DNA from: Cyanophora paradoxa CCMP329
Taxonomy: Eukaryota; Plantae; Glaucophyta
DNA length: 30,900 nt
NCBI GenBank assembly: GCA_004431415.1
Contig: QPMI01000070.1
Location: 1 to 30,900 of the forward strand
Reading direction: 5' to 3'
Under the pieces are notes generated by a model, which saw nothing but the letters and a program-made list of their open reading frames with translations, did no database searches and was not told the origin of the DNA. Below, in pieces: positions 6,160 to 25,142 of the stretch. The stretch's first letter is position 1; each line of letters begins with the position of its first letter. A program made the translations under genes and the position numbers.

Positions 6160-6740
6160 CTAGGATCCGAAAACGGTGCGCCAGGAAGGGCGCGTGCTCG
6201 ACTTCTGGATCACCGAATCCCTCGCGACGTAGTACAGATCATCCGGGGATGGCCCTGGACTCGACCTCTTGCACGCGCAAGCGTGAATTCGCGAATGCCG
6301 CATCATGATCAGAAATCGAGGAAGACGGAAAGATATCTTGCACCGGCTCGAAGTACTCGGCAAAAGAACTCGAGGTAAATGAAGCACCGACTTGCTGGGT
6401 CGTATCGATACATCATCAGCGCATCAGGGTGCGCGTGGTATGTGCTGCGGACGAGTTCACGGTACGCAGCCTCCAGAAGATCTGTCTGCCACGTCTCTGA
6501 AACATAGATCTTCAATCTAACAGGCCCTGCGCTGTTTAGATTAGGCACAAGCTTAAGGCATCGATGCAACCGTTGTCGCACCTGTCATATCAGTGATGCC
6601 ACCGGAAGGGGCCGGCAGTCCCGAGAACGCGCACCTCGACAGAGCTGCCGCGTTCTCGAGCCGCGATCGCGGCGCGTACAGAGCAATCAGCGCTTCCGAC
6701 TCGGCGACCTGCTCTTCTGTTGGCTCTGGTACTGGTGGCG
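6160..6740 (-). pseudogene. Host repeated coding-like domain B, copy 3 (inverted), with upstream 'PTEEQVAESEALIALYAPR' segment
   Basis: ORF fragments 6553..6804, 6309..6581 and 6160..6387 match the fragments at 9786-10336 in the same order. Confidence 0.45.
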
Positions 6741-6791
6741 CCGACCGCGGCTTCCGTGAAGTAACGAGCTGTTTTCGAATACGTTTTCCCC

Positions 6792-7298
6792 ATGCGGTAA
6801 GCATCGATCTCAGCTACTTTACAAACGAACTACGAGCGCCAAGTTGGTGGTCTCGAGCTCGAGACCGATGGCCGCGTACCGAACGCTCAGACCGAGCGCC
6901 GCCGAGGTAGCCGGCGGTGCTAAAGCCTCTAGCTAGCTAGATCGCGTGCTCTAGCTAGTTCTCCGACCGCCGGGTGCCGCCGTTGGAGCCTTGCTAGTGT
7001 GGTGGTCGGACGGGTACCCCCCTGCGCGTAGTTCCCCCCGGCAAAGTCGCCGGGGCAAAGTCGCCGGGGCAAACTTGCCGGGGCGAAGTCGCGGTTTCCG
7101 GAGCGCCGGATCTGGAGCTGTGTTCTGCTAGCGTCCGAAGTGCTGTCGGCGTGGCAAGCGGTCAAAGTGCTGTCGGCGTGGAAGCGTGGCACGTGGCGCT
7201 CGAAAAGGTGCGCCGGATGCCTTCTTTCCGCATCCATGGCCATGGCGGGTTAAGCTGCGCGTGCGTCCGTGCGGCCTCCCTTGACAGATGCGTCTCTC
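6792..7298 (+). repeat. Host dispersed repeat A, copy 2
   Basis: Near-identical to 4114-4612. Confidence 0.93.
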
Positions 7299-7584
7299 AG
7301 GGATGGATGCACACGAGGAGACGAAACGCGAGTTCGAAGAGAGCGGCCAGGAGCGTGCGGAGAAACGCCAGCTGGAGACTTTCCAAGACGCCGGGGCGAA
7401 CTTTCCGGAGCGAAGTCGCATGAGCGCTATTAAGCGCCCGCGTGCCGGAGATGCGTATGATGCGAAGGACGCAAAGGATGAAGTACGCGCGGTCACACTT
7501 CATATCGCTACATCCAGCGTGCGTCTGCTCGCTCGCGCTTCGAATTCTTTGCTCGCTCGGCCACAAATTTAAACCACGCGCGCA

Positions 7585-8048
7585 GGAGATGCCGTGGTCA
7601 CTCTCGAAATCTCCAGCCCCGCCTGCATCGTCGTGCGCCCGCCCGCCGGCGCCCTCTTGCTCGTTTTCTCAGACCAGCCGGCTTGCCATTGGCACAGGAC
7701 CCGGAGCAGAGCACCTTCAAGCCCAAGCAGCGGCTGCCGGCAGAGGGGCTGGCCATCATCGAGGCCACCCTGCGTGCCACCAGCCCCGCACGGTCGCATT
7801 GCGGCTTGAGAAGTGCGCGCGGCTCCCGAGCGCCGCCTCGTGCACTAAGTGCAGCCCGCAGCGCCCGCCTCGAGGACATTCCGGCATCGCTGCAGGATAT
7901 CCTCGTCGAGAAGGTTGCGCACATCCACCTCGTCGGCGAGACCACGCTGCACCCGTTCCCAGAGGAGAACGCAGAGTCGGCCCTCGTCTATGCTACTATG
8001 TCGGACCTTCGCAAGCGTGGGCTGCTCACGATGACCATGTCGCCCGAG
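7585..8048 (+). CDS. Possible host exon(s), unknown protein
   Basis: Protein-like translation in ORF 7683..8189 ('LEDIPASLQDILVEKVAHIHLVGETTLHPFPEENAESALVYATMSDLRKRGLL') with G/C-ending codons, a CAG acceptor-like site near 7585 and a GAG|GTGCG donor-like site near 8048. No family recognised. Confidence 0.3.
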
Positions 8049-8657
8049 GTGCGGCACGGCCATGGCCAGCTAGCGCCCTCCCTTTCCTCGACCCCGCCCA
8101 TCTGCAACCCAGGTACCCTGGCTCGTGGACCCCCTCAAGTTCGTTTGCGGCGAGTTGCCACCCTACAACAAGATTTTCCAACGGTTTAACACCTTCATGG
8201 AGCACATCTACGGCCCCTTCCTGTGAAATCAATCAGGCAGGCACTCGTTATGCACTACGGCGCCGACATGTAATGCGCTACCTCAGTAGCTCTGAAACCC
8301 TGACTTCAATTAAATAGTGCACGCCTCCGCCTCGCCTATCGCCGGAGTCGACATTAGCAGTTGACGACGCTCAAATGGCAGCGCGCGCTTTAGGCGAGAA
8401 AGCGCCATCGCTGAGCTACATGAAGCTCTCCACGCGTACATTCATGGGTTGCCGCTGCCCACAAGGGAGCCGACAAGTCGACAACCGGCATCTTCGATGA
8501 CAGGTGCATGCACATGCAGTTTTGCGTCAAACCAGAATTGAGGAGAAACAGATCAAAAACCAAACCAGAACCAAGCTCGCCAAGATGTTCGAACCAGGGT
8601 GAAAGTGTCCAAATGGATTCCTGGTGCGAGGGTATCCGGATTAGCTATGTGTCACTT

Positions 8658-8895
8658 GCAGTGATGTGTTCGGCATCGATACCGGTATATTCGGATCCAG
8701 GGTATTGATTGAGTTTCCAGCTCAATCGCGAGCGTCTGCAGCTGGCATGGCTTATGTGAAGGCAGCACAGAAAACCCATCGTGACATTCTTGTGCATGGT
8801 ACACTCAAGATCTAAATATCGCGCGCAGTGATGTGTTCGGCATCGATACCGGTATATTCGGATCCAGGGTATTGATTGAGTTTCCAGCTAAATCG
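8658..8895 (+). repeat. 71 bp direct repeat (8658-8728, 8825-8895)
   Basis: 'gcagtgatgtgttcggcatcgataccggtatattcggatccagggtattgattgagtttccagct(c/a)aatcg', 70/71 identical. Confidence 0.95.
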
Positions 8896-9785
8896 TGCGC
8901 ACACATACATATGTTATTGAGTCCGTTCTGCTAATCCTTATAATCTCTGCGAAATGCACTTGCAGTTTGCGAAATGCGAGAGCGCAATCCCAAGTTCTTC
9001 GAGAGCCTTGAAACAAAGTAGTTTGAATTACACAGCTCTCTCGTCAAGAACTGCTCCACGTGCACCAGCACAAGACGAGAAGCACATGTTGGTGTCGCAT
9101 GCAGGTAAAACCATTGCACGTTAATCAACACATGAATTAATTGAATGTATACGCAGGTTTCTATTCGCTGTTCCCTCTTATGCAGTCGTACACTACCAGG
9201 AATCTCGATAAATATAGCCAGCGAACAGATCTAGAGCGAAGCTTACAGACGTATATCTTTCCAATAGACTATTACCATCCGGACTTAAGCATTTCCTTGC
9301 CTCCCAAACTCTATTGCTAGAATAGTTATAGCAATCAGAAGGTCAGGTACATATGCACGCAGACATGCAGCTTGTTAAAGATCCGGCCGCGGAGGTAAGG
9401 CTCCTAGGAAACGGTACAGGTAGAATTTGTAATGTAGAACTTAGGTAAGGCTGGTAGCCCGAGTGTATACGTAGTGGTATCCTTTCGTGTCGTAGATTTG
9501 TTGTGTAATATGATGTGTTAAATATATTTGAATCGTTGTGTAAAGTTTCGGATTTCCAAAATTCGTGCTGCACTACGGCGCCGGCTTCGACTTGGATCCG
9601 AGACGAATGCGACCAGCATGACTACTATATAGTTCACGTCTCCTGCTACTCAGAATTCGAATTCGAGAAAACAATACAGCAATCTCTGTGCAGAAGAATC
9701 TGTGTTTGGCTAGTGCGCATGGCGTCGGCGACCACGAATAAGATGCAGCTGCGGACCCGTACTAGGTCCTAGGGATTTGCACTGG

Positions 9786-10336
9786 CTAGGATCCGGAAAC
9801 GGTCGCCAGGAAGGGCACGTGCTCGATTTTCGGGACCACCTCATGCCTCGCGACGTAGAACAAATCATCCGGGAATGCCCTGTACTCGACGCCTGTGCAC
9901 ATGCACGCGTGAATTCGGAATGCCGCATCAGAAATCAAGGTAAGAAGCAAAGATCGCTTGCACCGGCGGCTCGAAGCAACGGCTTTCTGGATCGTACCAA
10001 TAGAGCGCAAGCCCGCTAACATTGCCTACAGAGTTGCATTCGCAGTCCAGGTCGAAGTAAGCCTGGATCAGAAGGTCTGTCTGCCACGACATAGAAACAT
10101 CTATCCTGACGCGCACTGGCCCTGCCTGTTGAGATCAGGGCACACAATCAGGGGCAACGATGCCGGGTTGCAATTGCACGTGTGCACCCGTCTTTTCAGT
10201 GACGCGTAGCGGGGAAGGCCGCAGTCACCGAGAACCCGCACCTCGACTGAGCTGCCCCGTGCACGAGCCGCGGTCGTGGCGCGTATAGAGCAATCAGCAC
10301 TTCCGACTCTGCGATCTGCTCTGCTGTCGGCGGCAT
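9786..10336 (-). pseudogene. Host repeated coding-like domain B, copy 4 (inverted)
   Basis: 'MPPTAEQIAESEVLIALYAPRPRL', 'VRIDVSMSWQTDLL...LALYWYDPESRCFEPPVQAIFASYLDF' and 'RIHAC...PDDLFYVAR' in successive frames. Confidence 0.45.
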
Positions 10337-10443
10337 GCGCAGCTGTCCGCTGTCACTCCTGACTTCCTTGCAGCTTTGGTAGCGAGCTGTTTTCGAGGTA
10401 CTTTCTGCATTCTGGAACGCAGTCCGACAGCGAGCGAACCGAG

Positions 10444-10769
10444 CGCCGCCGTCTTTGGAGCCTTGCTGGTGCGTGGTCGAACGAGTACCCCCGGCAGGAA
10501 GTTCCCCCCGGGCAAAGCCGCCGGGGCAAAGTCGCCGGGGCAAAGTCGCCGGAGCACTGTCGCGGTTTCCGGAGCGCCGGATCTGGAGCTGTGTTCTGCT
10601 AGCGTCCGAAGTGCTGTCGGCGGGGCAAGCGGTCAAAGTGCTGTCGGCGTGGAAGCGTGGCACGTGGCGCTCGAAAAGGTGCGCCGGATGCCTTCTTTCC
10701 GCATGCGCACCCATATATAGCGGCCTTGCGCGTGCGTCCGTGCGGCCTCCCTTGACAGTAGCGTCTCTC
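10444..10769 (+). repeat. Host dispersed repeat A, copy 3 (5'-shortened); its downstream extension is interrupted by the viral insertion
   Basis: Matches the 3' part of copies 1 and 2. The extension 'atgcacacgaggagacgaaacgc..gcgtgcggagaaacg' matches 7307-7367 up to the AT-rich junction. Confidence 0.9.
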
Positions 10770-10884
10770 AGGATGAATGCACACGAGGAGACGAAACGCA
10801 AACTCGAAGAGAGCGAACAGGAGGTTGATTATGAGCTTGAGACGGAGGAAAGCGGCCCGGCGCGTGCGGAGAAACGTGCGCGAG

Positions 10885-11167
10885 ACACATAGTAAAATGC
10901 GGAGTTTTAACCCTCGGCTTAATCTTAATTGATTTTGTTGATATATCTCGTATATTCTATTTCAATCAATCGATAATCTGTGTATATCTTATCGAATATT
11001 CAATTATTTCGATTATTTGTATTCTTTTCGATATTTTATCGTAAATTTCTCTTATTTTCCGATTAGTCTTACTGAGTTAATCGATAATCTGTATATATTT
11101 CCGAATAATATAACTGAATCTCAATTAGATCTTGCCTCTGGTTAAAACTCCGCATTTTACTATGTGT
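10885..11167. repeat. Perfect 28 bp inverted repeat (10885-10912 / 11140-11167)
   Basis: ACACATAGTAAAATGCGGAGTTTTAACC and its exact reverse complement GGTTAAAACTCCGCATTTTACTATGTGT. Confidence 0.96.
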
Positions 11168-11420
11168 GATTGGTCTAAAAGTTAATTGATTTAATCGATA
11201 TTATATTCATGTACTTTCTCGATTAAATTTAATTAAATTTAAATTCATTTAATCGGAAATATATCGCTTAACTCGATTAAGATCCATATTAGATTCATTT
11301 GTTTAATAAAACAAATAGATCTCTTATTGAATCCAATCGTAATTATACATGAAACTTATATGATTTATCATTGTTTTATTGAGTCTAAGGGGGACCCTTA
11401 GGAATTTAATGAATAATTGG

Positions 11421-11511
11421 GTGTCACAGGTGTCACAGGTCCATCCCATCGAAAGGGAAAATCACTCTTTATAGGGCTTGAGCTGGGATAAACCTGTGAC
11501 ACCTGTGACAC
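11421..11511. repeat. Iteron-like site 1: 20 bp perfect inverted repeat built of tandem 9-mers, 51 bp spacer
   Basis: GTGTCACAGGTGTCACAGGT (11421-11440) and ACCTGTGACACCTGTGACAC (11492-11511). Confidence 0.92.
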
Positions 11512-12234
11512 ATACCATATTCAGTAAGGACCTCTTATATTGTGAAAATCTCAGTGTTAGTTGGTGTAGTTGATTCAAAAAATGCATTTTATACTCTGAT
11601 TCATTGTTATTTCCTGTGAAATTTGAGTCAACTCAACCCACTTAGTCAACCCTTGCATTGAATTCGTAACAAAATCCATATACTATTACTACTTTTACGA
11701 TTAATATGAGTCAACCTTGAGTCCACTTTAATATAAATATTATATAATAGGGGGAATCAAGGGGAGATGCTTACTAAATGCAGTGTTAGATTGATGGGAT
11801 CATAGATGGGATCACAGTTATCGAAGCAATATAATATAGTTGAATATTCGATATCATAAGTTGATCGAAACGATAAGTATATGGTTATAAATCGCGATTT
11901 TTGAGTTATAATCGAATTTAATCGAATTAATTTTGAATTTCAAAACTCGCTTTAATCGTAATAGCGATCTATACACATTGAGATTCGTATATGTGATTGC
12001 AAGTTATTGTTATGTATGATATATGTGATTATATTCGACCGTCAGTGCATCGATTTGATAACTTGCTAGTGATCTATATTAAAAACTCACGTTTAATGGA
12101 TTTTAATCGAATTTATAATCAAAATTCAAAATCGGTTTCATCGCGATTTGGAGTTACAGTTAGTGAAATTCCGATATGGCTCATAAGCGCTGTGACCGCC
12201 TTGAAATGCTCGATTTTATGACGTTTAAGCGCAT

Positions 12235-12539
12235 CGATTTGATAAGTTGGTGTTGAGATATCGTAGCAAACGTTAATATTGATTTTCTAGACGGGTACAG
12301 CATTAATCTAGAAAAAACCGCGTTTTTTTTTACTTTTCAAGTTTCACGGCGAACGAAGTAAAGGTTCCCGAGCGGATTTGAACCGCGTAGTTTTGAGTCA
12401 GAAATCAAGCTCTCTATTCTCTGAGCCAAAAACGGCTTACCACCAAGTCGACTCCTGGCTAGTGTTTCACCAAGTCTACTATGGCAAGTGACTTTTGCAT
12501 CTTCAAACTGTTATATCTCATCACCAGATCATCAAAACG
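12235..12539. repeat. Imperfect 27 bp inverted repeat enclosing the tRNA-like sequence
   Basis: 12235-12261 versus the reverse complement of 12513-12539, 22/27 identical. Confidence 0.65.
12363..12436 (-). ncRNA. Degenerate tRNA-like sequence (tRNA-Gln(CTG)-like), possible Pol III unit
   Basis: Minus strand GCCGTTTTTGGCTCAGAGAATAGAGAGCTTGATTTCTGACTCAAAACTACGCGGTTCAAATCCGCTCGGGAACC. It has box A-like TGGCTCAG, a CTC/GAG D stem, a TTGA/TCAA stem around CTG, and a T arm GCGG-TTCAAAT-CCGC (box B). The acceptor stem is poor. A T6 run lies ~45 nt downstream. Confidence 0.45.
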
Positions 12540-12660
12540 CAACGTTCTGCATATCGCTGTGAAGCGCTTGATAAGATCTACAAGACTATGTGTATATCAT
12601 GTGCATATATGTATATCAGTCATACATATATTTGGAAAAAACGAGTTTTTGCCTAGCAAA

Positions 12661-14043
12661 CTAGCTAGTTTTGGTCCTTTCTCTTAGTGTTCTCTGAGGT
12701 TTAGGGCTGTATATGACTCCTTAGTAGTCTGAAAGTCATTATACCATCTCTGGCTATTAACCTCAGAAAGTTTCTGTGTCCCTGCTATAGTGAGCTTTTT
12801 GAGTTCCCTGTTAACTTTCCCAGCCTTCTCCTTTCTAGCCTCTATCAAAGGCTTATCTGGGACTTCATTAGCAGCTTCTATGCTTCTCTCCTTATAGCAG
12901 CATCAGCCCTGGCTTCCTCTTTAGCTTGCTCCAAGGCATCCACTGTAGGGGTTTCTAGATATTCAACTGCATTCACAGGCAACAGCTCATGGAAAGCAAA
13001 CCTGTTTTCTATGATCTCACCAGTGGACTCCTTAGCTTAAACTTAAAGCCTTCCCTACTATCAACAGTGTAAACCATCCTAGACCAATTGTTACCCTGTT
13101 TAGCAAAGGGGTTCTTCTCAACTTTCACTCTAACAAACATGCCAGGCTGCATGGTATCAAGGTAAGCTATTGATTTCTTGAATCTTTCATCTTCTAATCC
13201 CACTATATACCTATAATGCTCCTCTGTAGTTTCGCCTGGCTTCATCTTAGTAGCTGAGTGAACTGTATTATTGTAATTATACTCAATATCACCTAACACA
13301 TCAAAGAATCTAGCTGTGTTATTAGCTATGCAATAGTTTGTGATCAGTCTCTTAATCTGCTTGTTAAAGGCTTCAATTCGACCTTGGCTTCTATGGTCAG
13401 CAGTTCCACTCACTTGGTGTTCTATGAATTTACTAGATAAATACTCCTGGAATATTCGATTTTGGAATTCACTCCCAGCATCTGATTGAACTTTTACTAT
13501 GGGTCTTGCCACTCTCATTTCAAGCTGTTTAAATGCAGCTAATGTAGTGAGAGCTGATTTATCCCTTATAGGTATGATATACCCAGTTCTCAGTGTAGAT
13601 TCCATTGCAGTCATAAAGGTATCATAGCCATTGTTTTGTTTCTTATAAGCTGGGAAAAAGAGCAAATCAATCACATAGGTATCAAGGGGTTGCCTAATTG
13701 GGACCATGGGATCTCTCTTCCTAGATATAGCAGGTGCATTGATCTGAACAACTTCTTGTTTTTTATAGAACTCTTGCAACTGCTTATAGGATTCATCAGG
13801 TAACTCAGCCCTCATAGCTTGAAGCCCTTTGTAACCAGTTCTCACATCATAGAATCTCTTGGCAATCTTGCTGGTTTCTTTCACTGCAATAGCAACTGGG
13901 ATCTCTACTGGGACAAGCTCTTTCATCTCTGACTTTTTTACAATTCGAGATTCTCCCTTTTCCTCCTTGGGAACTGTGATAGGCAGTAGGTTACCTTGTA
14001 GTTGCTCAGTGGTTCTCCTAACTATTCTTCCAGTTGCTGGCAT
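12661..14043 (-). CDS. Retroviral-like (rve) DDE integrase, polinton type; C-terminus frameshifted
   Basis: ORF 13009..14043 has YVIDL / VQSDAGSEF / SQGRIEAFN (D-D-E) and YNNTVHSATKMKP. Translation resumes in another frame (KESTGEIIENRFAFHELLPV) and continues across further shifts to ~12661. The exact end is uncertain. Confidence 0.93.
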
Positions 14044-14046
14044 CTC

Positions 14047-17000
14047 TTAATTAAAAGGAACAGAATTAATACCATCTGGTAAGATGTATCTCTTTGCATC
14101 AAAGCAGTTTAGGGCAACCCTTCTACTCACAGTGTCTATTATTGTGTGATCTGCCCTTCTTTTCTGCTTTGCAGTCACAGTCTTGCTGATACCTGCAAAT
14201 AAACACTGTTTAAAATCATTAAATTGGAGTTCCTCAGTTGAAGTCCAGAGAGCTTACTCCTCTCAATCTCAGCAGTTCTGAAACTGTAAACTTTAGCTCT
14301 CAGACCCACATACTCCAATATAGCAGAGCCAGGCATTTCATTTTTGTATTTACCTGGGGTCATTCTGGAATCACCTCCAAGGTCTAATGCATAGGATATA
14401 TTCTCTATATCTTTTTGTAGGGTCTTAGATTCGATATATAGACAAAAGGAGTCAGTATCATGGAATAGTAACTTTGCTTTTGTCCATTGGGACCTTACAG
14501 TATCATAGAAGAACTTGTAGTTATGCAGTTTGGCTGCATCCAGAACATAAGCCCCAATAGCAACTGGCTTATCTAGCTTCACATGCTTTGTGTAAAACTC
14601 AAAGGCAACTGCTTTTTCGTTTATGGGACTTGTTGATTTCACCAATGGGGAGGCTGCATATTTCATAAACAGTTTCTCACTGTTTGCAATCTTAACCACA
14701 GATCTACCTCTGCAAGATTCAATGCATTTCCCATAGATTGAGTTATTCATGAGTTTATAGAAATCAGCCTCGAATTTATTCACTGCTTTCCTTCTCATCT
14801 CAGTATTCAGCTCAATGTAGGGTTTCATTACAGGAGCCACAGTAAATGATAGGACCCTGTGAACCTTCTTTAGTTTCACCCCTTTGTCCAACAGATACTG
14901 TAGAAGAGGCTCAGAAATCACATAGTTGGTCACAGAACCAAAGGTTGCAGTTAGCTTAGGGGTCTTATCAAGCTCTTCTCCTGAGAGATCTAATAGGCTC
15001 TTTTGATATTGTGATAATTCTGCATATTCTACTATTTTCTTGTTAATAATTAGGGGAAATCACTGTGGTCTAGATATAGCCTAATTGGGTAATCCAGATC
15101 AACTTCCAGGAAACTGGATCTGTTATCTTGTGGGTTGAATTCGGTCTCCCATCTAAAATCACCAACTGGGATTGGCTGACTCAAACAGTAGCCATACAAG
15201 TTGTTAGCATCAAACAGCATTATATGGGAGTTCTCACCATCAGCCTCAGCATACCTACAAGGCATTGTTGCAAAGCCACCCCTGATTCCCCTCTCAACAA
15301 ATTCGTATTGCTCTACATCACTTATAAGCTCTATTTTTGCCTTGGTGGTCCTAAGCATAGCATCCCAAGATAACCCAGGTGCAGATACATAATGAACTGG
15401 GTCCAATCCATATACTGAGTGTGAAAGCCTTCTGAAAGCCTGGAATTTGCTCATTAACTCATCTACATCAGCAGCCCCAAAGTCCATAAAATTACTTGCA
15501 TCAATGAACTTGTAAAGACCCCATTGCAATGAAAGGTATTGATCAAAGTTTTTCGAAAGGATTTCGATTCGCTTTTTATCACCCATGCCTGCTATTTTTC
15601 TGAAAATGAATGTCCCACAGTCATCCATTTGGTCAACAACCACTGCTACTTTTGTTTGCTTTGAGATTCTCCTATGGAGATTGCAGTTTCTGCATGCAGG
15701 TGCAATGTAATTACCTGTGTGGTGATCATGATCCCTGCATTTGAAGTTTTCCTTGGTGAACCTCTCACTGCAAAGGTAACAGTGTTTGGTAGCTCTGTAA
15801 ATAGCCTTTTGCTCATCTGTGAGTTCATTCATGGGAATATTGGTGAACAGGAAATCGATTAGCTCTCTTGCTTTGGACTCCAAGCATTCAAACAGACCTC
15901 CCATTGGATCCTGACCCTCAAATCGAAACTCCTGAACATCTGCCCCAGTGACTATTCTAATGTTGACTGCTGAGACTTCCCTCTTGGATTTCGATGCATC
16001 AATGGGATGCTTCTATGTTCAATCTTGCAGTAAACCACAACAGGAAGCCAGACAGTTTTCCTGAGGTTTTTCAGTCCAAACTCTATTGTGGTGTCAGGCT
16101 TAGGGGTGATTCCCTTTGAGAGTCTCCAATCAATGCATCTGTTTGAGTCCACATGAGCAGTGAGTTTAGCCTCAGACCTGAATCGAGATAAGCATGTATC
16201 ACAGTAGTGTAACTTTTGATCCTTGGTTTTATCAAGGGCAACTCTGAGAAGTCTTGAAAGGGACATGATAGTAATATAGTGACCATTCCCTTCATCATCA
16301 TGAATGAGCATTAGATTAATCTTTTGCTTTCTGCCTGGGTTGCTGGATTGATGTAGGGGATATATAACATCTCCATCCATTCCAAATATGTTTATGCTGA
16401 TGCCTGCATTTTGAGATTCGAATTTATCAATGATTTCAGCATCACAAGGAACAGGGAATGGGATATTGTCGAAATTGAGAGCCAAAGGATTGTATGTGGT
16501 TGGTGAGTATTTCCATTTGCGATATTGTGTAAGCTCACTTCTCTTGTGGGAATTTACATCTTTCCTATGGATCCATGCCAAAATGGCATTTTCAAAGCAA
16601 GAATCATCAATATTTCGAATATTCACTGTGGCTCTCTTGGCTGCAATTGATTCTGGTGTTTTAACATAGCAGCCACCAGTTGGGGCATAACTCATAATAG
16701 CAACTCTTAGCATTTCGATTCTCTCCAATCGATAGCTATCAACAACATTCATCTGTTCCTGACACATTTGGGCTGCTTTATTCAGCTCAGTTCGAATATT
16801 TCTCGATTTGGTTAATACAAAATAATCGCTGTAAATGTATTTCGATATCCAAACCTGTGGATTGCTGACTTTTACGAACTTGCAGATAAACGACAAGCGA
16901 ACTTTGATTGCCCTGAATTGATCCAGACTATCTCTTAAACGTTTTGGTAGAGAGGTTGCAATTCTATCTAAATATTCAATCACATCTACCACAACTTCCC

Positions 17001-17289
17001 TTCTGGCTCTGTATGTGAGCCAGCGATATAATTCATTCATGGCTGTTCCATCTTCTGCCTCTGGTTCTATTTGCCTCAGGCGATCGAGTTCATCAAGAGT
17101 CTCAACTTTGTCATAGAGGTTATTGGCTTTTCTGGTTAATTTTGCTAAAGTGGGTCTGCCCCTTGAAATAAATCCGATTTCCCGGTCATATTCAGCCTCT
17201 GTGATTTCATGGGCTGCATACAGTGTTCCCAGTAATCCCATAAGTTCCCATTTCTTCTCTCTAATGAGTCTGTTGCTAATTCGGGGCAT
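14047..17289 (-). CDS. polB: Protein-primed family B DNA polymerase (pPolB) with vOTU-like, C2H2-like and endonuclease VII-like domains; several frameshifts
   Basis: Three consecutive ORFs plus linkers. Motifs: YGLDPVHYVSAPGLSWDAML, GIRGG, FDANNLYG (A), KLMNNSIYGK (B), FHDTDS (C), LRAKVY, and the C-terminal ALNCFDAKRYILPDGINSVPF* ending at 14047. It carries a CYLC..RDHDHHTG..ACRNCN insertion and DDSCF...GHY. Confidence 0.94.
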
Positions 17290-17345
17290 AGTTCCTAACT
17301 TGTTCCTACTAAAAGGGGAGGTTTTAAATGGGGAATTCTGAACAC

Positions 17346-17395
17346 AAAATTTGATGAAAACTACTTAAAGAAATATCTTCTATATATATAAAAGG
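17346..17395 (+). promoter_or_regulatory. Conserved upstream motif copy 1 (AAAATTTGA..ACTTAAAG..TATATATA)
   Basis: 17357-17395 is 38/39 identical to 18682-18720 and ends 3 nt before the ATG at 17399. Confidence 0.8.
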
Positions 17396-17398
17396 ACA

Positions 17399-18214
17399 AT
17401 GGCAGAGAAGAAATCGTATTGCCTGGAAAAGCTCAAAGCGGCTTTAATGTTGCTTTGTGGATCTGATAACTTCAATGATTATGTTGCTCTTGGAAGTAAC
17501 AGGAAACCGCTCCCTCTTTGGGCAAAGCTTGCAAAATATGGATTAAGTGACTATGACCTGCCTCCAGAGTCTGAGCATTGCGCCTGTGATCATCCAATTA
17601 AAGAGCAATGCTATATTCTGCATGTTAATAAAAAGATTGTGGTCATTGTTGGGAATTGCTGCATTTTACGATTTATTCCGAAGGGTGCCAGAGGTCAAGA
17701 TATATGTGAAAGATGTGGAGATCGGCATAAAAACCGAAAGGATAATTTCTGTAATAAGTGCAGAATCGCTTTAAAGCAAGAAGAACTGGAAAGAAAAAGA
17801 GAACTTGAAAAACAAGAGGAAGCTCGAAAGAGGCAGCTTGAATTAGAAGAAAGAGAGCGAAGAGAGAGAGAATTAGAACAAGAAAGAGCAAGGAATAAAC
17901 ATGCAGTTAATCTTTTCCTGATTTGGTGCAACCAATTTATTCCGAAAATGGATAATCTTCGCAGAGATGATATAGAGAGGTTCAGAGAGGGCAGATCTGC
18001 ATTGATTGAAATGTATGCAGAACTCAGTACAACAAATACATTGGTTGCTGGGTTTCAGGTGCCTTATCTTAAAAAAGATATCGCAAAAGGATTAGATTGC
18101 AGATGGAATAAGGACAAGAAAACATGGGAGACCTTGGAAATCGAACCATTTGTAGCATTGCTAGGTAAGCATTTCAAACTTATGTATATTGAGCGATTTG
18201 GACAAAGAGGTTAG
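17399..18214 (+). CDS. Zinc-finger / coiled-coil protein with C-terminal DUF5710-like motif
   Basis: CACDHPIKEQCYI..VGNCCILRF and CERC..CNKC Cys clusters, an E/R/K coiled coil, and FQVPYLKKDIAKGLDCRWNKDKKTW, which resembles DUF5710. Preceded by the promoter motif. Confidence 0.75.
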   Translation: MAEKKSYCLEKLKAALMLLCGSDNFNDYVALGSNRKPLPLWAKLAKYGLSDYDLPPESEHCACDHPIKEQCYILHVNKKIVVIVGNCCILRFIPKGARGQDICERCGDRHKNRKDNFCNKCRIALKQEELERKRELEKQEEARKRQLELEERERRERELEQERARNKHAVNLFLIWCNQFIPKMDNLRRDDIERFREGRSALIEMYAELSTTNTLVAGFQVPYLKKDIAKGLDCRWNKDKKTWETLEIEPFVALLGKHFKLMYIERFGQRG

Positions 18215-18219
18215 AGAAC

Positions 18220-18252
18220 AAAAAATGATTTAAAGAATTCTCTATATATATT
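18220..18252 (+). promoter_or_regulatory. Conserved upstream motif copy 2
   Basis: AAAAAATGATTTAAAGAATTCTCTATATATATT upstream of the ATG at 18271. Confidence 0.7.
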
Positions 18253-18270
18253 AAGAGAGACAGAGGAAAA

Positions 18271-18525
18271 ATGCCACTCAGTGAAGCCCAGAAGAGAGCT
18301 ATGAAGAGATACCAGCAAACTGAAAAAGGTAAGGCTCAAATCAAAAAGTTTAACGAAAAAATAGCCACACAGCTTAGAGATCTATATCAAACCGATGATA
18401 CCTATAGAGCAATGAAAATAGCAAGTTCATGTCAGCGAAAGTATGCAGCCAATGCAGTCTGCTTTGTCAAGTATTTGTATGATGTCCCTTACTCAAATAG
18501 AGGGAGAAAATTGAAACATGTCTAA
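18271..18525 (+). CDS. Small basic hypothetical protein, possibly DNA-binding
   Basis: 84 aa K/R-rich ORF (SEAQKRAMKRYQQ..., RGRK near C-terminus) that fills the intergenic gap and has the promoter motif. Confidence 0.7.
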   Translation: MPLSEAQKRAMKRYQQTEKGKAQIKKFNEKIATQLRDLYQTDDTYRAMKIASSCQRKYAANAVCFVKYLYDVPYSNRGRKLKHV

Positions 18526-18661
18526 ATTATTTTTCCCAGCATATTACTAGGCTGGGGATATGCTGTTTATTCGCTGAAATACCCATTCATCCTTTTTGTA
18601 TCTAAACCACTCGATATATCATGTGGATAAATTTCGTAGGGATACTTTCTCGATTTCCAAC

Positions 18662-18720
18662 AAAAAATGATTGGGGGACCCAAAACTACTTAAAGAAAAA
18701 TCTTCTATATATATAAAAGG
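18662..18720 (+). promoter_or_regulatory. Conserved upstream motif copy 3
   Basis: AAAAAATGA..AAAACTACTTAAAGAAAAATCTTCTATATATATAAAAGG upstream of the ATG at 18738. Confidence 0.8.
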
Positions 18721-18737
18721 GACCCCGATCGCTGAAA

Positions 18738-21065
18738 ATGAACGCCAAACAGACTAAATCGCTCAAATCGCTCGCTAACTGGCTCAGATCTGATGAGGAA
18801 CTGTCCAAAAACATGATTATCCCAGTGAAACCTGACAGCAAAGACCCTGTTTTCAAGCATAAGGGAGGTGCTTGGTCCTGGGAAAAGTATGAGGAAGCGC
18901 TGGCAACTAATCAGTATGTATCTTGGGGCATTCTGCTCTCAGACAACATGATGGTTATTGAATTTGATGATGAGGAGGACTTTGAGAAATTCCGAGATAT
19001 GTTTCCTGATGACTTTGATGCCAATCAGCCCATGGCAAAAACTAAAAAAGGCTATCATGTCTACTTCAAACGACCTGAGGAGTTCACTAAACTCAAAATT
19101 ACCGATAAGGCTCCAGGCTTTAAAGGCTTTGAAAAGGTTGACCTGAAAACAATCACTGGAACTGGAACTTCTGGATTAATTAATGTTTGTCCCAGTGTCA
19201 ACAAGACCTGGGTAATTGCTCCATGGGATGATACCTGTGATTTCAATGAGCCTACTGATGAGTTTAAAAAGTGGATTGCAGAGAACTATATCTATAAGAG
19301 TGAGTATACTGCTAGTGCTAGCTCAAATGATGAACTGGAAAAGAGTATTCTTAAAGAGCTGGTGGATATGGGCTTTATGCATCCCAATATAATCTCTAAA
19401 ACTGAACTTGGCTTTAGCTTTGATGCTGCTAATAAGGGACTCAATTGCCCATGCTGCAATGGTTCCCATGAATCGAATAACTGGTATGTTATGAAAGCCA
19501 AAGGAGAAGATAAAAAGTATATTGTGTCCAGCTACAGTGGCAATTGCAAAAAACGATTTATCTTCATTGGAATGCAATCTGATATCTTCAATCTCATTGA
19601 TAAATCCGCTGGCTCTGGAGGCGCTCATTATGATGTCAGTCTTGTGTGCAAAGAGGTCCTACAACACACTTGGAGATACTCCAAAAAGTCATGGTTCAAA
19701 CTCAATACTGATACTGGGATTTGGGAGCATGATGACACAAACCAAAAGATTTACCTAGACATTAGTTGCCTTGTTGTCCCTCAATACCTTGGCAGGGCTG
19801 TGCATTATAGTCAAAGAGCTTTGAAGGATGAAGAGAATAGAACAGCTTTCGAAGAGAAATCGAAAACATTAATTTCTATTGCCAAAAATCTTAAACAATC
19901 AGGATATCGCAAATCCCTTCTGACTGATCTGCTCCCTCTGCTAAATGATGATGAGTTTTACGAGAAGATTGATACAGTTCCATATGTAATTGGATTCGAT
20001 AATGGTGTATTTGATCTGACAACTATGACTTTCAGAAAGGGTAAACTGGAAGACATGGTGAGCAAGAGTGTGGGTTATGATTATACTGAGAATGTAGACC
20101 CCAAGAAAGTGGAGCATCTCAATCAGATTTATAGAGAGATTGTAGATGATCCAGCAGAGCGAAACTATCTTCTGGCATCTATTGCAATTGCTTTGAGTGG
20201 ATCAACAAAATCACAGAAGTTCTACATGTGGACTGGTGCTGGTGCTAATGGTAAATCACTTGTTCAGGAATACTGCAAACAGATATCTGGGGCTTATTAC
20301 AGCCCTCTCGAAATATCCTATTGGACCAAACCTAAGAAGAACTCATCAGATGCTACCCCTGAACTTGCCAAACTCCTGGGAAAGCGACTTGTATTCAGTA
20401 ATGAGGCTGAAGATGGTGATAAACTGCAAATCTCCAAAATTAAGGAGGTCACAGGTGGAAATGAAATGACTGTGAGAGCCTTGTTCAAAGATCCAGTTAT
20501 CCTTACTCCAATGTTTCAAGTCTACATTACAACCAATGACAATTTGACTATAAACAAACCAGACTTTGCAATTCAAAGAAGGCTTTCATACCAGAGATTT
20601 AACAATATTTTCAGAGAGAAGCCAGAAGCTGGTCAAAAGAAAGCTGACCCAACTCTGTTCACACTTCTACACAATGATGATGAGTATAAGATGGCTCACA
20701 TGAAGATATTACTGGATATGTGGAAGAACAAAGAGGTTGAAGAGATCTTAAGAAATCCCCCTCAATCGATTATTGAACAAGGGATAAACTTTATAGCTGA
20801 AAATGATAAGATTGGTGAATGGCTTAGGGATAATTTCGAAGTAACCCACAATGCAAACGACTTTGTTTCGAGTGATACCATTTACAAATCATACAGAAGT
20901 GTCGATGATAAAGTTGAATGTGTTTCTGTGATGAAGAGAGTAAGGGAAATCTTCAATGTGAAATCAGAGGTTAAAAGAATTCAGGGAACCAGAGCAAGGG
21001 GCTACATTGGACTTCGAAAGATAACAAGGGTTCAAGAAGACAATGGAGAGGATGTCGAATATTAA
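18738..21065 (+). CDS. Prim-Pol (AEP) + D5-like superfamily 3 primase-helicase
   Basis: Intact 775 aa ORF. N-terminal GILL..MVIEFDD..KTKKGYHVYF, then CPCC..H..C, D5_N-like IGFDNGVFDL, Walker A GAGANGKS, Walker B LVFSNE, motif C YITTN, AIQRRL, and a C-terminal winged-helix-like region. Confidence 0.95.
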   Translation: MNAKQTKSLKSLANWLRSDEELSKNMIIPVKPDSKDPVFKHKGGAWSWEKYEEALATNQYVSWGILLSDNMMVIEFDDEEDFEKFRDMFPDDFDANQPMAKTKKGYHVYFKRPEEFTKLKITDKAPGFKGFEKVDLKTITGTGTSGLINVCPSVNKTWVIAPWDDTCDFNEPTDEFKKWIAENYIYKSEYTASASSNDELEKSILKELVDMGFMHPNIISKTELGFSFDAANKGLNCPCCNGSHESNNWYVMKAKGEDKKYIVSSYSGNCKKRFIFIGMQSDIFNLIDKSAGSGGAHYDVSLVCKEVLQHTWRYSKKSWFKLNTDTGIWEHDDTNQKIYLDISCLVVPQYLGRAVHYSQRALKDEENRTAFEEKSKTLISIAKNLKQSGYRKSLLTDLLPLLNDDEFYEKIDTVPYVIGFDNGVFDLTTMTFRKGKLEDMVSKSVGYDYTENVDPKKVEHLNQIYREIVDDPAERNYLLASIAIALSGSTKSQKFYMWTGAGANGKSLVQEYCKQISGAYYSPLEISYWTKPKKNSSDATPELAKLLGKRLVFSNEAEDGDKLQISKIKEVTGGNEMTVRALFKDPVILTPMFQVYITTNDNLTINKPDFAIQRRLSYQRFNNIFREKPEAGQKKADPTLFTLLHNDDEYKMAHMKILLDMWKNKEVEEILRNPPQSIIEQGINFIAENDKIGEWLRDNFEVTHNANDFVSSDTIYKSYRSVDDKVECVSVMKRVREIFNVKSEVKRIQGTRARGYIGLRKITRVQEDNGEDVEY

Positions 21066-21124
21066 ACAAAACGATTTATGATTGAAATGTATATGTAATT
21101 TTATAGCCTTACTGGAAATGGTGT

Positions 21125-21216
21125 TGTTCACAGGTGTCACAGGTCCATCCCATCTAGGGGGCTATAAAAAGAAAAATGACCAGGGGACGATAAAAACCTG
21201 TGAACACCTGTGACAC
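21125..21216. repeat. Iteron-like site 2, same architecture and 51 bp spacer as site 1
   Basis: TGTTCACAGGTGTCACAGGT-CCATCCCATC...ACCTGTGAACACCTGTGACAC, ~60 bp after the primase-helicase stop. Confidence 0.9.
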
Positions 21217-21231
21217 CTATCGAAAAAGACC

Positions 21232-21284
21232 AAAATTTGACAAGAATACTTAAAGCTTACTTGATTGTGTATAGTGAAGACAAA
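21232..21284 (+). promoter_or_regulatory. Conserved upstream motif copy 4 (diverged)
   Basis: AAAATTTGACAAGAATACTTAAAG...GTATAG upstream of the ATG at 21285. Confidence 0.55.
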
Positions 21285-21506
21285 ATGGCAAAGGCTCTTG
21301 AAGAAATGACCATGATTGAGTTAGATAAATGCATTAAACATGGAGATATAGGGGCATATATCGAAATGTCACAGAGATTGATAGGTTACAATGTGTATGC
21401 AGCAAAATCAAAGAGAAATAGATCAGTAAACATTCACATAACTGTTTCAGTGTCTGAGAATGCAAACAAAAAACAACAAAAGCATATTTACAAAAGTTAT
21501 CTGTGA
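21285..21506 (+). CDS. Small hypothetical protein (73 aa)
   Basis: In-frame ATG (MAKALEEM...) of ORF 21210..21506, just after the promoter motif. Confidence 0.55.
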   Translation: MAKALEEMTMIELDKCIKHGDIGAYIEMSQRLIGYNVYAAKSKRNRSVNIHITVSVSENANKKQQKHIYKSYL

Positions 21507-21556
21507 CTTGATTGCAAGTATAAAGCCAATTCCTTTGTATATATTTTTATAGCTGC

Positions 21557-21573
21557 CTCAGTAGCATACTGAG
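21557..21573. terminator. Short hairpin between convergent genes
   Basis: CTCAGTA-GCA-TACTGAG, a 7 bp stem. Function inferred from position only. Confidence 0.3.
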
Positions 21574-21593
21574 ACCGCTTTTTCTCAATTATC

Positions 21594-21839
21594 TTATAGA
21601 CCTGGGGGTCCATTGCTACTTTCAGTTGGCAAATAATATTTAATCGGTCTTCCTCTGGGTCTCTGCTCTTCTTTTTGGGCTTTTCTGCGATAATAGGATG
21701 CCAGGGCTTGCTGCTTTTTATACTCTCTATATTCTGGGTCCTCTCTATATCGTTTCTGCTTTGCTAGAATGTGTCTAATAGCACCCTCAGTTAAAGGCTC
21801 ATCACTGGTAAACTCGATCAAACTAATTGTATCCTCCAT
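21594..21839 (-). CDS. Small basic protein with AT-hook-like motif (81 aa)
   Basis: MEDTISL...QKRYREDPEYREYKKQQALASYYRRK...RPRGRPIKY; uses an internal ATG of ORF 21594..22034. Confidence 0.65.
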   Translation of the reverse strand: MEDTISLIEFTSDEPLTEGAIRHILAKQKRYREDPEYREYKKQQALASYYRRKAQKEEQRPRGRPIKYYLPTESSNGPPGL

Positions 21840-22095
21840 TAATATTTGCTGAGAAAACGTTTTCGCCTGGCAAAGAACTTCTCCTTGGATACTCCTGTTG
21901 CTCATATGTATACTCTGTGGGGTCTGCTGGCATTGACTCCACAGAAACTGTTGATCTCCTTCTCTCTCTTGCTTCTGAGGCATTATCCTCATTATCTGAC
22001 ATCTCAAACTCCACTTTTGTCTCACAACATCCACTGTGGCAATTGCTCACCACATGCAGACTGAACATCTCGAAGAACTTTCGTATTATGTCCAT
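21823..22095 (-). CDS. Small hypothetical protein with SNCHSGCC motif (90 aa)
   Basis: Internal ATG of ORF 21823..22155 tiles between neighbouring genes; amphipathic N-terminus followed by a Cys cluster. Confidence 0.55.
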   Translation of the reverse strand: MDIIRKFFEMFSLHVVSNCHSGCCETKVEFEMSDNEDNASEARERRRSTVSVESMPADPTEYTYEQQEYPRRSSLPGENVFSANINGGYN

Positions 22096-22117
22096 ATCTC
22101 TAATAAAACAGAGATAA

Positions 22118-22852
22118 TTAAAGCCAAACTCGTCTTTTATATACTGTTGGGGCAACTCCCTTTTCTACTTCAGCTTTGGTGGCACCAGGTTCAATGGTTC
22201 CCTTTTGGGTTTTTGTTTTCATTTCATCTACTGCCTGCTCATCGATTTGGTTCTCTTTCTTAGCAATAAACTGTTTATCTGGGACACCAGTAATGCCCAT
22301 TTTATAAACTTCCTTTCGAAGCATCTCCTTTAACTTGGCTCTCTCTTTCTTCTCAGTAACATACTGCTCCAAGGCACTTGATTTGGCTTCCAGATCTTTG
22401 AGTTTAGCAGTCATCTCATCCCATTGAGCCTTGGGAATTCGATGAATATTTTGAGTGGGAGCAGTCTTGTATGTGACTTCACCAGCCATAGACTGAATTA
22501 CCTTGTCTGATTCCTTACTAAGACCCTCACCTTTGCGAGCCAGTGAAAGATCTTGCAAGCCTAAACCTTTGTCATCAGCAGCCCCAATAATTCGCCTGGC
22601 ACCCTCAGCAACAGACTTCATCTTTGCTGTCTCAGGGGAAATGTTCAGTTGGTCAGCAGTTGAACTTTGTGGGGCTTTGTCATCGACTGATTCCTCATAG
22701 GCAGCATTTAGGGGGTCTTCTTGGGGTTGTGAGGGTTTGATTTCGTTCATACCATTGAATTTCATTGGTTCAGTGTTAATAGATCCACTGTTTCCACCAC
22801 CTGAATAGCCAACAGCCCCAGCTGGGATCCCTATTTTTCGTTTGGGAGGCAT
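22118..22852 (-). CDS. Hypothetical charged protein, 244 aa (possible core protein)
   Basis: Long ORF in the structural gene block with an MPPKRK N-terminus and a coiled-coil-like segment. No family recognised. Confidence 0.75.
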   Translation of the reverse strand: MPPKRKIGIPAGAVGYSGGGNSGSINTEPMKFNGMNEIKPSQPQEDPLNAAYEESVDDKAPQSSTADQLNISPETAKMKSVAEGARRIIGAADDKGLGLQDLSLARKGEGLSKESDKVIQSMAGEVTYKTAPTQNIHRIPKAQWDEMTAKLKDLEAKSSALEQYVTEKKERAKLKEMLRKEVYKMGITGVPDKQFIAKKENQIDEQAVDEMKTKTQKGTIEPGATKAEVEKGVAPTVYKRRVWL

Positions 22853-22966: not shown

Positions 22967-23662
22967 TCAGTTCATCTTCTTTCTTTTTGGCTTTCTGTGG
23001 AAGCGAGGAAATGGGAAGTCTTTGACAAGCTCAGCTTTATCTACAAAGTATTTAACTGAGTAGCCAGCAGAGGACCAAACGATATACTGATAGGAGTGGA
23101 CATATTCTTCAAACATTTTGTAAAAGTCCTCCTTGTTTCGCATTATATTGTATTCTTCCTCTATGGCTTCAAGTTCTTTGCGATTAGCAGCACTCAGGAA
23201 AACAGCATAATCAGAATTAACTCGAATAGTGGAAGAGACTTTTCTGAGTTTCTGTGTAATGCAGATAATGGATATTTTCGAGTGTCTGCCCCTACTGTAC
23301 AGAGATGACACCACCTTGTCTCTGGTTAAATCAATTATCTCATTATCAATTAAATCATCTAAAACAACACACATGTGGTTCACAGGTTCACCTTTTTCGA
23401 TTTTCTCCTGCCTTTCATCCAAAAGCTTTGAAATGTAACCGGCATCCCATTTACCAAGTTCTACTGTTGCAACCTCTCTCCAGAAATGATTGAAGCTGGT
23501 CCCACTCACAACTAGGACAACATCAATAACTTTGGCATCATGTAATTGCTTTAACCAATACTTTACACATTCGCTTTTTCCCGTACAACTTTTGCCTATA
23601 AAAATGGCTCTGAAAACACCTTTAATCATTTCAGAGACATTAAACTCTTCTAAATCTTGCAT
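22967..23662 (-). CDS. A32/FtsK-HerA family genome packaging ATPase
   Basis: Walker A GKSCTGKS, Walker B CVVLDD, SRGRHSKISIICITQ and IRVNSDY. The C-terminus may extend to ~22915 through a frameshift. Confidence 0.94.
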   Translation of the reverse strand: MQDLEEFNVSEMIKGVFRAIFIGKSCTGKSECVKYWLKQLHDAKVIDVVLVVSGTSFNHFWREVATVELGKWDAGYISKLLDERQEKIEKGEPVNHMCVVLDDLIDNEIIDLTRDKVVSSLYSRGRHSKISIICITQKLRKVSSTIRVNSDYAVFLSAANRKELEAIEEEYNIMRNKEDFYKMFEEYVHSYQYIVWSSAGYSVKYFVDKAELVKDFPFPRFHRKPKRKKMN

Positions 23663-23721: not shown

Positions 23722-25089
23722 CTATAAATTGATTCTACGAACACCTGAACCGTCTATAATGAGGAAACTATGCATTAAAGCGCGAACTTGAACATTGATT
23801 GTCTTATCTGTGGGCATGTAGAGTGTGAGGAATGAAGATGAGGAATTTGTCAGGTCGACAAAGCCACTTTGAGCAATATTTCGAATTGCCTTTTCTCCAT
23901 CAAGGCAGAATGGGAGTCCTGAAAGGACATATTTATCTGCAACCTTATCCATGTTAGAGCATTTGAAGGCATCAGCAATTAGCTCAGCTCCTTTGAGTAG
24001 AGAAATTGGCTCAGTGGCAAAAAGTCGCTGTCCATTTATTTCAGTTGTGAATGTTATCTCTTTGGAGTTGGCATAGGTCTTAAGAACACTATGGGAGCCA
24101 TTGGATTTGTCAACAGTCTCATAATCACGAACTGAAACAAGCAGAGCATAGACAAGACCTGAGATTTGAGAGAGGTTAATTCGATTGGGCTGGGCATTGC
24201 CCTTGGCAGGGAAAGCAATGGCATCTACAAATCCAATATCAAGGGAGGGAATAGCCATGCCAGTAGTCTTTACTTTTTCAATTACAGTAGCGAAAAGCTC
24301 ATCAGAAACATTAATAGCATGCATGTAAAGGCGAGGAGAAGTAATTGAAATAGCAGGGGTTGTTGCACCAAGACTGAAAGTGGTGATGTTTTGACCAACA
24401 TGGGCAAGTGTAGCATTAGCAGTATCACCAAGACCATCATCTTCTGTCTTATCAGCAGCTGTCCCACCAACAACAGGGAGAGAGCGACCACCATAGGAAG
24501 TTTCAACATAACCCTTTCCAGCATCCTTAAACCAAACAGTAACAACCATTTCACCAGATAAAGCACCAAGGGGAAGGTAGTGATTTAGCCAAGGCACTGG
24601 GATTTCAACGAAAAATGAGCCACCAAGTCGGTTGGTTCCATGAGCAGGGATTCCATGAACCATGCCCATTGAGCGTTTCTTTTTAGCTAGTTGATCCTCC
24701 GAATAATAGACCAGGGGGAAATGAGCAAGGAAATCAGAAGGAATGTGGTAGGTGTAAGATCCATAGGTAATTTCAAGTCGCTGAACTAAAGCACCAACTG
24801 GGCGAGTGTATCCATTGCGAACTAGATCTTCACCAGCAAAAGTGATTTCTGGTAGGTCGAAAGCAAGTTCGAGTTTTCCACAGAAATTGTAGCGAGGTAG
24901 CTTGAAGGAAATGCGATTTCCTACATTATTCTCAAAAGTATTGCTGGGATTCACAACAACTAGAACTGGCTTAGACTTGGATTCGAGACCAAGCATAAGG
25001 GAGTTATCCAAGAAAAAGGCTTTCGCCTCCTCTGGGGTTGTTAGGGCTTCTTTCAGCGAAAGTCTTTGAAGAGTGGAAGTGATATCCAT
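23722..25089 (-). CDS. Double jelly-roll major capsid protein (455 aa from ATG 25089)
   Basis: Size, position between ATPase and penton, and the motifs ISFKLPR..KLELAFDLPEI, LVQRLEITYG, VEIPVPW..YLPLGAL..VTVWF, and LPFCLD..QSGFVDL..VQVRALMHSFLIIDG. Confidence 0.85.
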   Translation of the reverse strand: MDITSTLQRLSLKEALTTPEEAKAFFLDNSLMLGLESKSKPVLVVVNPSNTFENNVGNRISFKLPRYNFCGKLELAFDLPEITFAGEDLVRNGYTRPVGALVQRLEITYGSYTYHIPSDFLAHFPLVYYSEDQLAKKKRSMGMVHGIPAHGTNRLGGSFFVEIPVPWLNHYLPLGALSGEMVVTVWFKDAGKGYVETSYGGRSLPVVGGTAADKTEDDGLGDTANATLAHVGQNITTFSLGATTPAISITSPRLYMHAINVSDELFATVIEKVKTTGMAIPSLDIGFVDAIAFPAKGNAQPNRINLSQISGLVYALLVSVRDYETVDKSNGSHSVLKTYANSKEITFTTEINGQRLFATEPISLLKGAELIADAFKCSNMDKVADKYVLSGLPFCLDGEKAIRNIAQSGFVDLTNSSSSFLTLYMPTDKTINVQVRALMHSFLIIDGSGVRRINL

Positions 25090-25142
25090 TATATTCTCTT
25101 TTATTATACTGCAACATAAAAAATCTACCAATGATCCTTAAT

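Follow-up and report, generated by a model that had tools for sequence, protein, structure and literature searches.

Two iteron-like blocks as candidate replication origins in a polinton-like element of Cyanophora paradoxa

Where does a polinton-like element of a glaucophyte start to copy its DNA? The question is raised by a stretch of 30,900 nucleotides of Cyanophora paradoxa CCMP329 (assembly GCA_004431415.1, contig QPMI01000070.1, positions 1 to 30,900 of the forward strand; the whole stretch is called the window), in which two short blocks of repeats were found. The first block (site 1) occupies positions 11421-11511 (91 bp), 536 bp inside the left end of the element and 7.2 kb before a D5-like gene, which encodes a primase-helicase of 775 amino acids. 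The second block (site 2) occupies positions 21125-21216 (92 bp) and starts 59 bp past that same gene's stop codon. A previous sequence-only reading had described both blocks as iteron-like sites and had proposed that they are origins for the D5-like protein or, alternatively, recombination sites. In our study, the coordinates of the two blocks and their placement, one in the terminal region and the other just past the primase-helicase gene, were confirmed. The blocks are built like the tested origins of archaeal and bacterial mobile elements and therefore likely mark where the primase-helicase starts copying. Position, architecture and the comparison of replicons make it fairly probable that both blocks are iteron-type origins for the 775-amino-acid protein, site 2 being the cognate origin and site 1 a duplicate near the end.

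Structure and conservation of the two blocks

Both blocks contained two tandem 9-mers facing two inverted ones (a 2+2 arrangement), as the sequence-only reading had described. Site 1 was the more regular and consisted of four exact units, GTGTCACAG twice followed by its complement twice, with a period of 9. In site 2, two units were exact, and the other two, at the outer left and inner right positions, were variants with an additional T. The main unit TGTCAC was present in six of the eight units of the two sites and TGTTCAC in the other two; the TGTTCAC previously noticed in site 2 is the product of these extra-T units, and an A follows in both. The inner 9-mers were separated by 55 bp at both sites, and the inner hexamers were 59 bp apart. 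The equal spacing of the sequence-only reading thus stood, whereas its value of 51 bp is reached only when the GT/AC beside the arms is counted as arm. The sequence CCATCCCATC, which had been reported as shared after the left arm, was found in the window at positions 11441 and 21145 only, and the direct block common to the two sites was 34 bp long with 91% identity. The rest of the spacer had diverged, as claimed, with 15 of 41 positions equal, which is the chance level (p ~0.14). A strict detector of 2+2 sites, defined as a tandem hexamer followed after a gap by an inverted tandem, found sites 1 and 2 and no others over the entire window, and no such site was obtained in 300 dinucleotide shuffles of the element.

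The homology of the two blocks extended into their flanks. In the inverted-pair and flank tests, the right flank of site 1 (11512-11530, plus strand) was found to be homologous to the left flank of site 2 (21107-21124) when the latter is reverse-complemented, and none of 5000 random element segments scored equally. The flank match is inverted and the 34-bp block is direct; the two sites are therefore direct repeats in their cores but inverted repeats in their flanks. Judged from these alignments, the four half-sites are all homologous and sites 1 and 2 are mosaics of each other, a similarity that would fit arm-to-arm exchange within a multicopy family.

Contigs of other copies from the sequencing runs X1, X2, X4 and X20 were placed on positions 10860-11600, contig depth being a rough guide and not a copy number. 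The right arm of site 1 and its flank were covered about as deeply as the terminus, and the cover of the left arm was intermediate. The cover of the spacer was 4- to 9-fold lower (1,713 vs 14,565 in X1, 3,953 vs 36,976 in X2 and 2,353 vs 9,752 in X4). The X4 spacer variant of site 1 contained 8 consecutive substitutions without listed gaps, a low-depth X20 contig over positions 11433-11555 contained 23 differences and 0 gaps, and no indels inside site 1 were found among the copies in the 12 listed of 15. The spacer changes by substitution without listed gaps and the right arm stays covered, which suggests selection on the arms and the length of site 1 and not on the sequence of its spacer. A lower contig cover was also found at positions 17300-21600 and 11780-12570, with a long loose end at 17326; this suggests variable cassettes within the family, the first of which would hold the helicase gene and site 2. 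A minor contig at 11510-11587 contained an arm with the central base switched in both units, in an apparently tandem arrangement. Another contig contained a divergent 3' end of the helicase gene (48 differences) and lost its fit where site 2 begins (21122). The switched-arm variant and the divergent helicase end may possibly belong to one covarying subfamily.

The primase-helicase and comparable replicons

The primase-helicase gene (18738-21065, plus strand) encodes a Prim-Pol domain, D5_N, a superfamily 3 (SF3) ATPase and a predicted C-terminal winged helix. Pfam matched the Prim-Pol family PF09250 (E 7.8e-4, just under the cut-off), D5_N (PF08706) and DUF5906 (PF19263). The Walker A motif was located at residues 500-507 and was invariant, together with other SF3 columns, in an alignment of 14 sequences. 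The first acidic residue of the motif of the predicted primase was E, whereas most relatives covering it contained D. The structure model of the protein had a predicted local distance difference test (pLDDT) value of 83.6, and its fold matched the PrimPol of African swine fever virus and poxvirus D5. Residues 273-763 of the model aligned with the PriRep protein of the Staphylococcus aureus pathogenicity island (SaPI) SaPI5 (7om0; Z 25.4, root-mean-square deviation 5.0, 406 residues aligned), and residues 2-188 with the Prim-Pol of the Sulfolobus plasmid pRN1 (1rni; Z 12.9, deviation 3.3, 167 residues aligned). In the model, the order of helices and strands in the tail fits a winged helix at residues ~691-761. 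The tail folded alone had a pLDDT of 37, and its sequence gave no match in the PDB. For the D5, capsid and ATPase genes, the search for close relatives yielded only distant loci, mostly of giant viruses, or nothing. The tail as a whole was closest to eukaryotic-type homologues.

The organisation of pRN1 is the nearest to that of site 2. The passages of PMC4234260 on this plasmid report that an essential inverted repeat of 100 bp begins 54 bp after the gene for a Prim-Pol/SF3/winged-helix protein (ORF904), and that the origin has a 21-nt stem and a 58-nt loop, the integrity of both loop and stem being required. The element of the window is similar to pRN1 in having Prim-Pol, SF3 helicase and winged helix in one protein, and an inverted repeat of ~100 bp within 54-59 bp past the stop codon (this holds for site 2; site 1 is remote from the gene). 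Each arm contains two hexamers with a period of 9, and the hexamers lie 64 bp apart in pRN1, by our own reading of the record NC_001771, and 59 bp apart here. The two systems differ in the unit, which is TGTCCA in pRN1 and TGTCAC here, and in the loop, which is AT-rich in pRN1. The pRN1 repeat is moreover a single copy on a circular archaeal plasmid without protein-primed family B polymerase (pPolB), integrase or capsid module, and in the same passages the pRN1 authors describe a stem-loop and not iterons.

The second comparison was made with the SaPI origins, which according to the pertinent part of PMC9371898 contain at least two opposed iterons per side, directly behind rep. In the cryo-electron microscopy study of SaPI PriRep (bioRxiv 10.64898/2026.10.17.759575), the wing is reported to read iteron bases. 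The element is similar to the SaPI ori/PriRep5 system in the fusion of primase and SF3 helicase and in the presence of opposed short iterons behind the gene, at least two per side. The winged helix of PriRep5 binds the iterons; the tail of the 775-amino-acid protein aligns with it by fold and is predicted to bind in the same way.

The closest likeness in the DNA was found in bacteria. Putative prophage sites at five loci (L331, L333, L105, L111 and L092) contained TGTCAC in a 2+2 arrangement with period 9, beside D5-like genes with a similar wing motif. The inner hexamers were 55-57 bp apart in L331, L333, L105 and L111 and 74 bp apart in L092, as compared with 59 bp here. Both 19-bp arms of site 1 were present exactly in L331 and L333, 4 bp behind the D5-like gene. 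Among the prophage-type TGTCAC sites, two contigs hold a second remote copy, as the window does, but the hosts there are bacterial. Because the helicase and the tail of the window are closer to eukaryotic-type homologues, the identity of the arms is, on the evidence of the sequences, retention or convergence and not recent transfer. That the tail was recently acquired from a bacterial prophage was likewise ruled out.

The wing of the 775-amino-acid protein contains the motif RARGYIG at residues 752-758. The pattern R.[RH][GVI][YF].G was common to this protein and to six phage D5 proteins of three lineages that are encoded beside TGTCAC sites; it was found in none of 175 homologues and in none of 157 tails of eukaryotic-virus D5 proteins. 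The motif is only a hint that the 775-amino-acid protein reads sites 1 and 2.

Phage P4 alpha protein is an SF3 helicase with an origin-binding winged helix and a Toprim primase. It had served as the model in the sequence-only reading, and the likeness was found to be weak: Pfam and the fold both assign the present primase to the Prim-Pol type and not to Toprim, the P4-like TGTTCAC is confined to two of the eight units, and the P4 iteron TGTTCACC, as named in that reading, has no full occurrence here. Both pRN1 and SaPI PriRep are better models.

Other replicons were surveyed from the side of the motif and from the side of the protein. On the motif side, 24 viral loci were chosen by the DNA motif alone. 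Eleven of them, from about five lineages, had a helicase gene of the SF3 or VapE type no more than 250 bp away (downstream in 5 and upstream in 6), and two more were second copies ~35 kb away from a copy that adjoins a D5 gene on the same contig, both on actinobacterial-type phage contigs. Three of the four motif matches in bacterial genomes adjoined a helicase gene. The matches of cultured phages to the left arm all lay (13/13) inside the primase/helicase gene of one Microbacterium phage group; in the one phage of this group that was inspected, the gene encodes a Toprim/AAA_25 protein. Related TGTCAC 2+2 sites with AT-rich spacers were also seen in L093, L095, L097, L099, L101, L108 and L330, several of them near PolA/UvrD, and no SF3 helicase was found in the stretch viewed at these loci. 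A pattern of 27 nt made from the sites had no match in metagenome contigs.

On the protein side, 15 phages were chosen by the protein alone, 12 from the 40 homologues listed (775 were found) and 3 by similarity of the tail. An exact 2+2 site with a unit of its own was found at the stop codon or up to 300 bp past it in 6 of the 15 (4/12 and 2/3, respectively). The strict detector found a 2+2 site downstream in 1 of 151 D5 loci of eukaryotic viruses and in 0 of 47 further ones, 13 of 164 distinct loci having been dropped since their flanks were too short; none was found in 448 control windows. The single positive, L163, is a polinton-like contig of 16 kb with its own 2+2 site 18 bp past the D5 stop codon, and it carries D5 and GIY-YIG along with an ATPase similar to that of the window (E 3.5e-13). 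The expectation of the sequence-only reading that related elements carry their own iterons behind D5 genes was borne out by L163 and by six of the 15 phages, but, with the strict detector, not by the 197 other D5 loci of eukaryotic viruses. Because so few of these loci carry a site, the 2+2 feature seems, as far as the strict detector sees, to go with small mobile replicons and not with the core D5 genes of giant viruses, the sample of polinton-like viruses (PLVs) being one. The phage BIP-1 (L113:2608-2711) contained a 2+2 site with period 9, ~470 bp past the replication gene and separate from the stem-loop proposed in PMC4234260.

An origin and the alternative roles of the blocks

If both blocks are origins, the predicted winged-helix tail of the 775-amino-acid protein would read them as double-stranded DNA. 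By analogy with SaPI PriRep and pRN1, each arm would take one hexamer, whose winged helices would settle on the arm's two units, and the fixed spacer would set the distance between the two hexamers; the hexamer would load itself, the DNA between the arms would be opened and the Prim-Pol domain would prime. The primers would then be extended by the pPolB of the element or by host enzymes. Site 2, moving together with the helicase gene, would be the cognate origin; site 1 would be a duplicate kept in the conserved terminal block, where it would provide a second start near the end and might also serve copies without this helicase. Terminal priming beside internal initiation, as suggested in the sequence-only reading, would have its only basis in the pPolB-type gene pieces.

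Several observations weigh against an origin function. The spacers contain 55-56% AT as compared with 61% in the element, and there is no AT-rich centre, unlike the SaPI origins, which moreover belong to bacterial phage satellites with one origin and an AT-rich core, whereas two sites are present here. The SaPI origins contain 6-12 iterons over ~300 bp, whereas there are 4 in 91-92 bp here. The wing pattern was defined after the data had been seen. Beside TGTCAC sites, five helicases (VapE-type or other) lacked the wing motif, the phage L337 contained the wing motif beside a GGGACG unit, and L334 and L335 contained TGTCAC arrays beside non-D5 proteins without the motif; L337, L334 and L335 rule out a strict wing-to-unit code, and only a tendency is left. 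The search for DNA of close D5 relatives found none, the best match having 39% identity. In the two surveys, 11 of the 24 motif-chosen loci had no SF3 helicase gene in the retrieved stretch, 9 of the 15 protein-chosen phages had no site by the strict detector, and L154, the sole other locus with a match to the ATPase, also had none. The element encodes a pPolB and could replicate from its ends without any internal origin.

Replication from the ends leads to another explanation, in which site 2 is an origin and site 1 loads the helicase beside the terminus for the replication or processing of the end, together with the pPolB or the palindrome. Site 1 is close to the end, beside a terminal palindrome of 283 bp and in a block covered about as deep as the terminus, and section 8 of PMC11296320 hypothesised from gene order that the terminal repeats of PLVs are origins read by the primase-helicase. 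The hypothesis in that section involves elements with a tyrosine recombinase and names no iteron, whereas the element here is of the RVE/pPolB type and carries a defined motif both near its end and past the helicase gene. We consider loading at the end unlikely, since site 1 is the more regular site and has kept the full two-arm layout and the spacing, and since remote second copies are also present in the two actinobacterial-type phage contigs. Single strands of both sites also folded well (site 1 with z -7.6, site 2 with z -3.2 and -4.0), and the need of pRN1 for an intact loop and stem would agree with a model, proposed for pRN1, of extruded hairpins or cruciforms that are recognised less by their sequence than by their shape. 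The two variant units of site 2, however, are not paired with each other and hence weaken the stem. A stem needs no tandem units at a 9-bp period, and any inverted pair of iterons folds in this way; the hairpin explanation is therefore improbable.

The sequence-only reading had also considered recombination sites that delimit a module of ~9.7 kb, and the excision or inversion of the integrase-polymerase-helicase module would be served by two homologous sites 9704 bp apart, whose similarity, a mosaic of direct and inverted stretches, suggests that arms were exchanged in the past. Among the 20 open reading frames scanned, however, none was found to encode a tyrosine or serine recombinase, the element extending past the window. 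The crossover of site-specific recombination sites measures 6-8 bp, far below the 55-bp spacer. The orientation of the sites is mixed, single sites are present behind helicase genes in many replicons, and the variable parts of the family, as far as depth is a guide, are located at ~17.3-21.6 kb and ~11.8-12.6 kb and do not coincide with the bracketed module. No joint of site 1 with site 2 was found among the contigs, but the contigs stop at 21145, inside the shared 34-bp block. Such a role is very improbable, and an equally slight chance is given to transcription signals (operator, terminator or bidirectional promoter). Site 2 does lie between genes, on the 3' side of the helicase gene, and includes a TATAAAAAG stretch, but site 1 lies in a terminal region without genes, a different repeated motif precedes the genes of the element, and no Rfam match was found in 10800-22500.

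The element, its genes and the meaning of the blocks

The window was found to contain GC-rich, repeat-rich DNA (55-64% GC) up to ~10.9 kb, followed by AT-rich DNA (~39% GC) to its end. Judged by gene content, the AT-rich part is a polinton-like element; it encodes an RVE-type integrase, a pPolB-type polymerase, the primase-helicase, an A32 ATPase, a putative capsid protein and a patatin-like protein. Its left end is an imperfect palindrome of 283 bp with outer arms of 41 bp (10885-11167), placed by the GC step, the arms, a jump in depth and the departure of a host contig. At position 10885 the contig depth rises from 245 to 20,325 in X1, from 872 to 50,950 in X2 and from 135 to 7,149 in X4, and a host contig diverges from the window at the same position; the two observations together mark the left end of a multicopy element. 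Among public sequencing runs of one organism, 19 rows contained at least half of the words of the element. A subfamily with a different terminal sequence in the palindrome region was seen among the contigs. The host DNA contains a GC-rich repeat in three degenerate copies in 4100-10880, and the element is inserted just past the third.

The RVE-type integrase (13009-14043, minus strand) matched PF00665 (E 1.6e-4, below the curated cut-off) and a PHROG transposase (E 4e-11). The protein-primed-type family B polymerase (14175-17289, minus strand) was found in three frames in this copy; two of its pieces matched PF03175, below the cut-off, and the middle piece (15050-15904) contained an Endonuclease VII-type zinc domain (PF02945). 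The integrase and polymerase regions (13000-17300) showed single-base indels as compared with other copies, and the broken frames may stem from errors of assembly or from the decay of this copy. The A32-type packaging ATPase (22967-23662, minus strand) matched PF04665 (E 2.3e-12). The putative major capsid protein of 469 amino acids (23722-25131, minus strand) was called by size and place only; it had one homologue (58%) in EukProt and no match in Pfam, PHROG or PDB. Discoidin-like (F5/8 type C), patatin-like and acidic-repeat tail-like open reading frames were found after the capsid module, at 27101-30473. An AT-rich repeat of 39 bp with 97% identity was present at 17357-17395 and 18682-18720, and partially near 18226-18252, immediately in front of the plus-strand genes in the helicase cassette, and is probably a promoter motif. 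The turning points of the GC skew tracked gene direction.

The kind of origin proposed here is already known. What is new is its place in a eukaryotic polinton-like element with a pPolB and an integrase, its second copy near the end and the identity of its arms with prophage sites. Our literature searches listed no defined PLV origin and no TGTCAC-type motif beside a primase, and the word 'iterons' was not met among the matches listed for polintons, virophages and helicases. In the relevant portions of PMC11161782 and PMC10120064, such elements are said to use pPolB or archaeo-eukaryotic primase-SF3 helicase (AEP-S3H) replicases, and these portions contain no passage on origins. On the place where PLVs and D5-type helicases start replication, section 8 of PMC11296320 gives a hypothesis only.

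A tentative and wider picture, which we regard as doubtful, is that the element would replicate in two ways side by side, from protein-primed ends and from an iteron origin of the pRN1 type, of which the terminal repeat would hold a copy, with three origins per complete element, replication of helicase-less copies in trans and a code between wing and iteron (R-x-R-G-Y-x-G for TGTCAC with a period of 9) that is the same as in bacterial prophages. If true, a protein-DNA code would be common to different domains of life. The terminal copy (site 1) would in itself give sequence-level support to the proposal that the ends of PLVs are read by the primase-helicase, and a site of 91 bp, a domain of 100 residues and many natural copies make the question of the origin testable.

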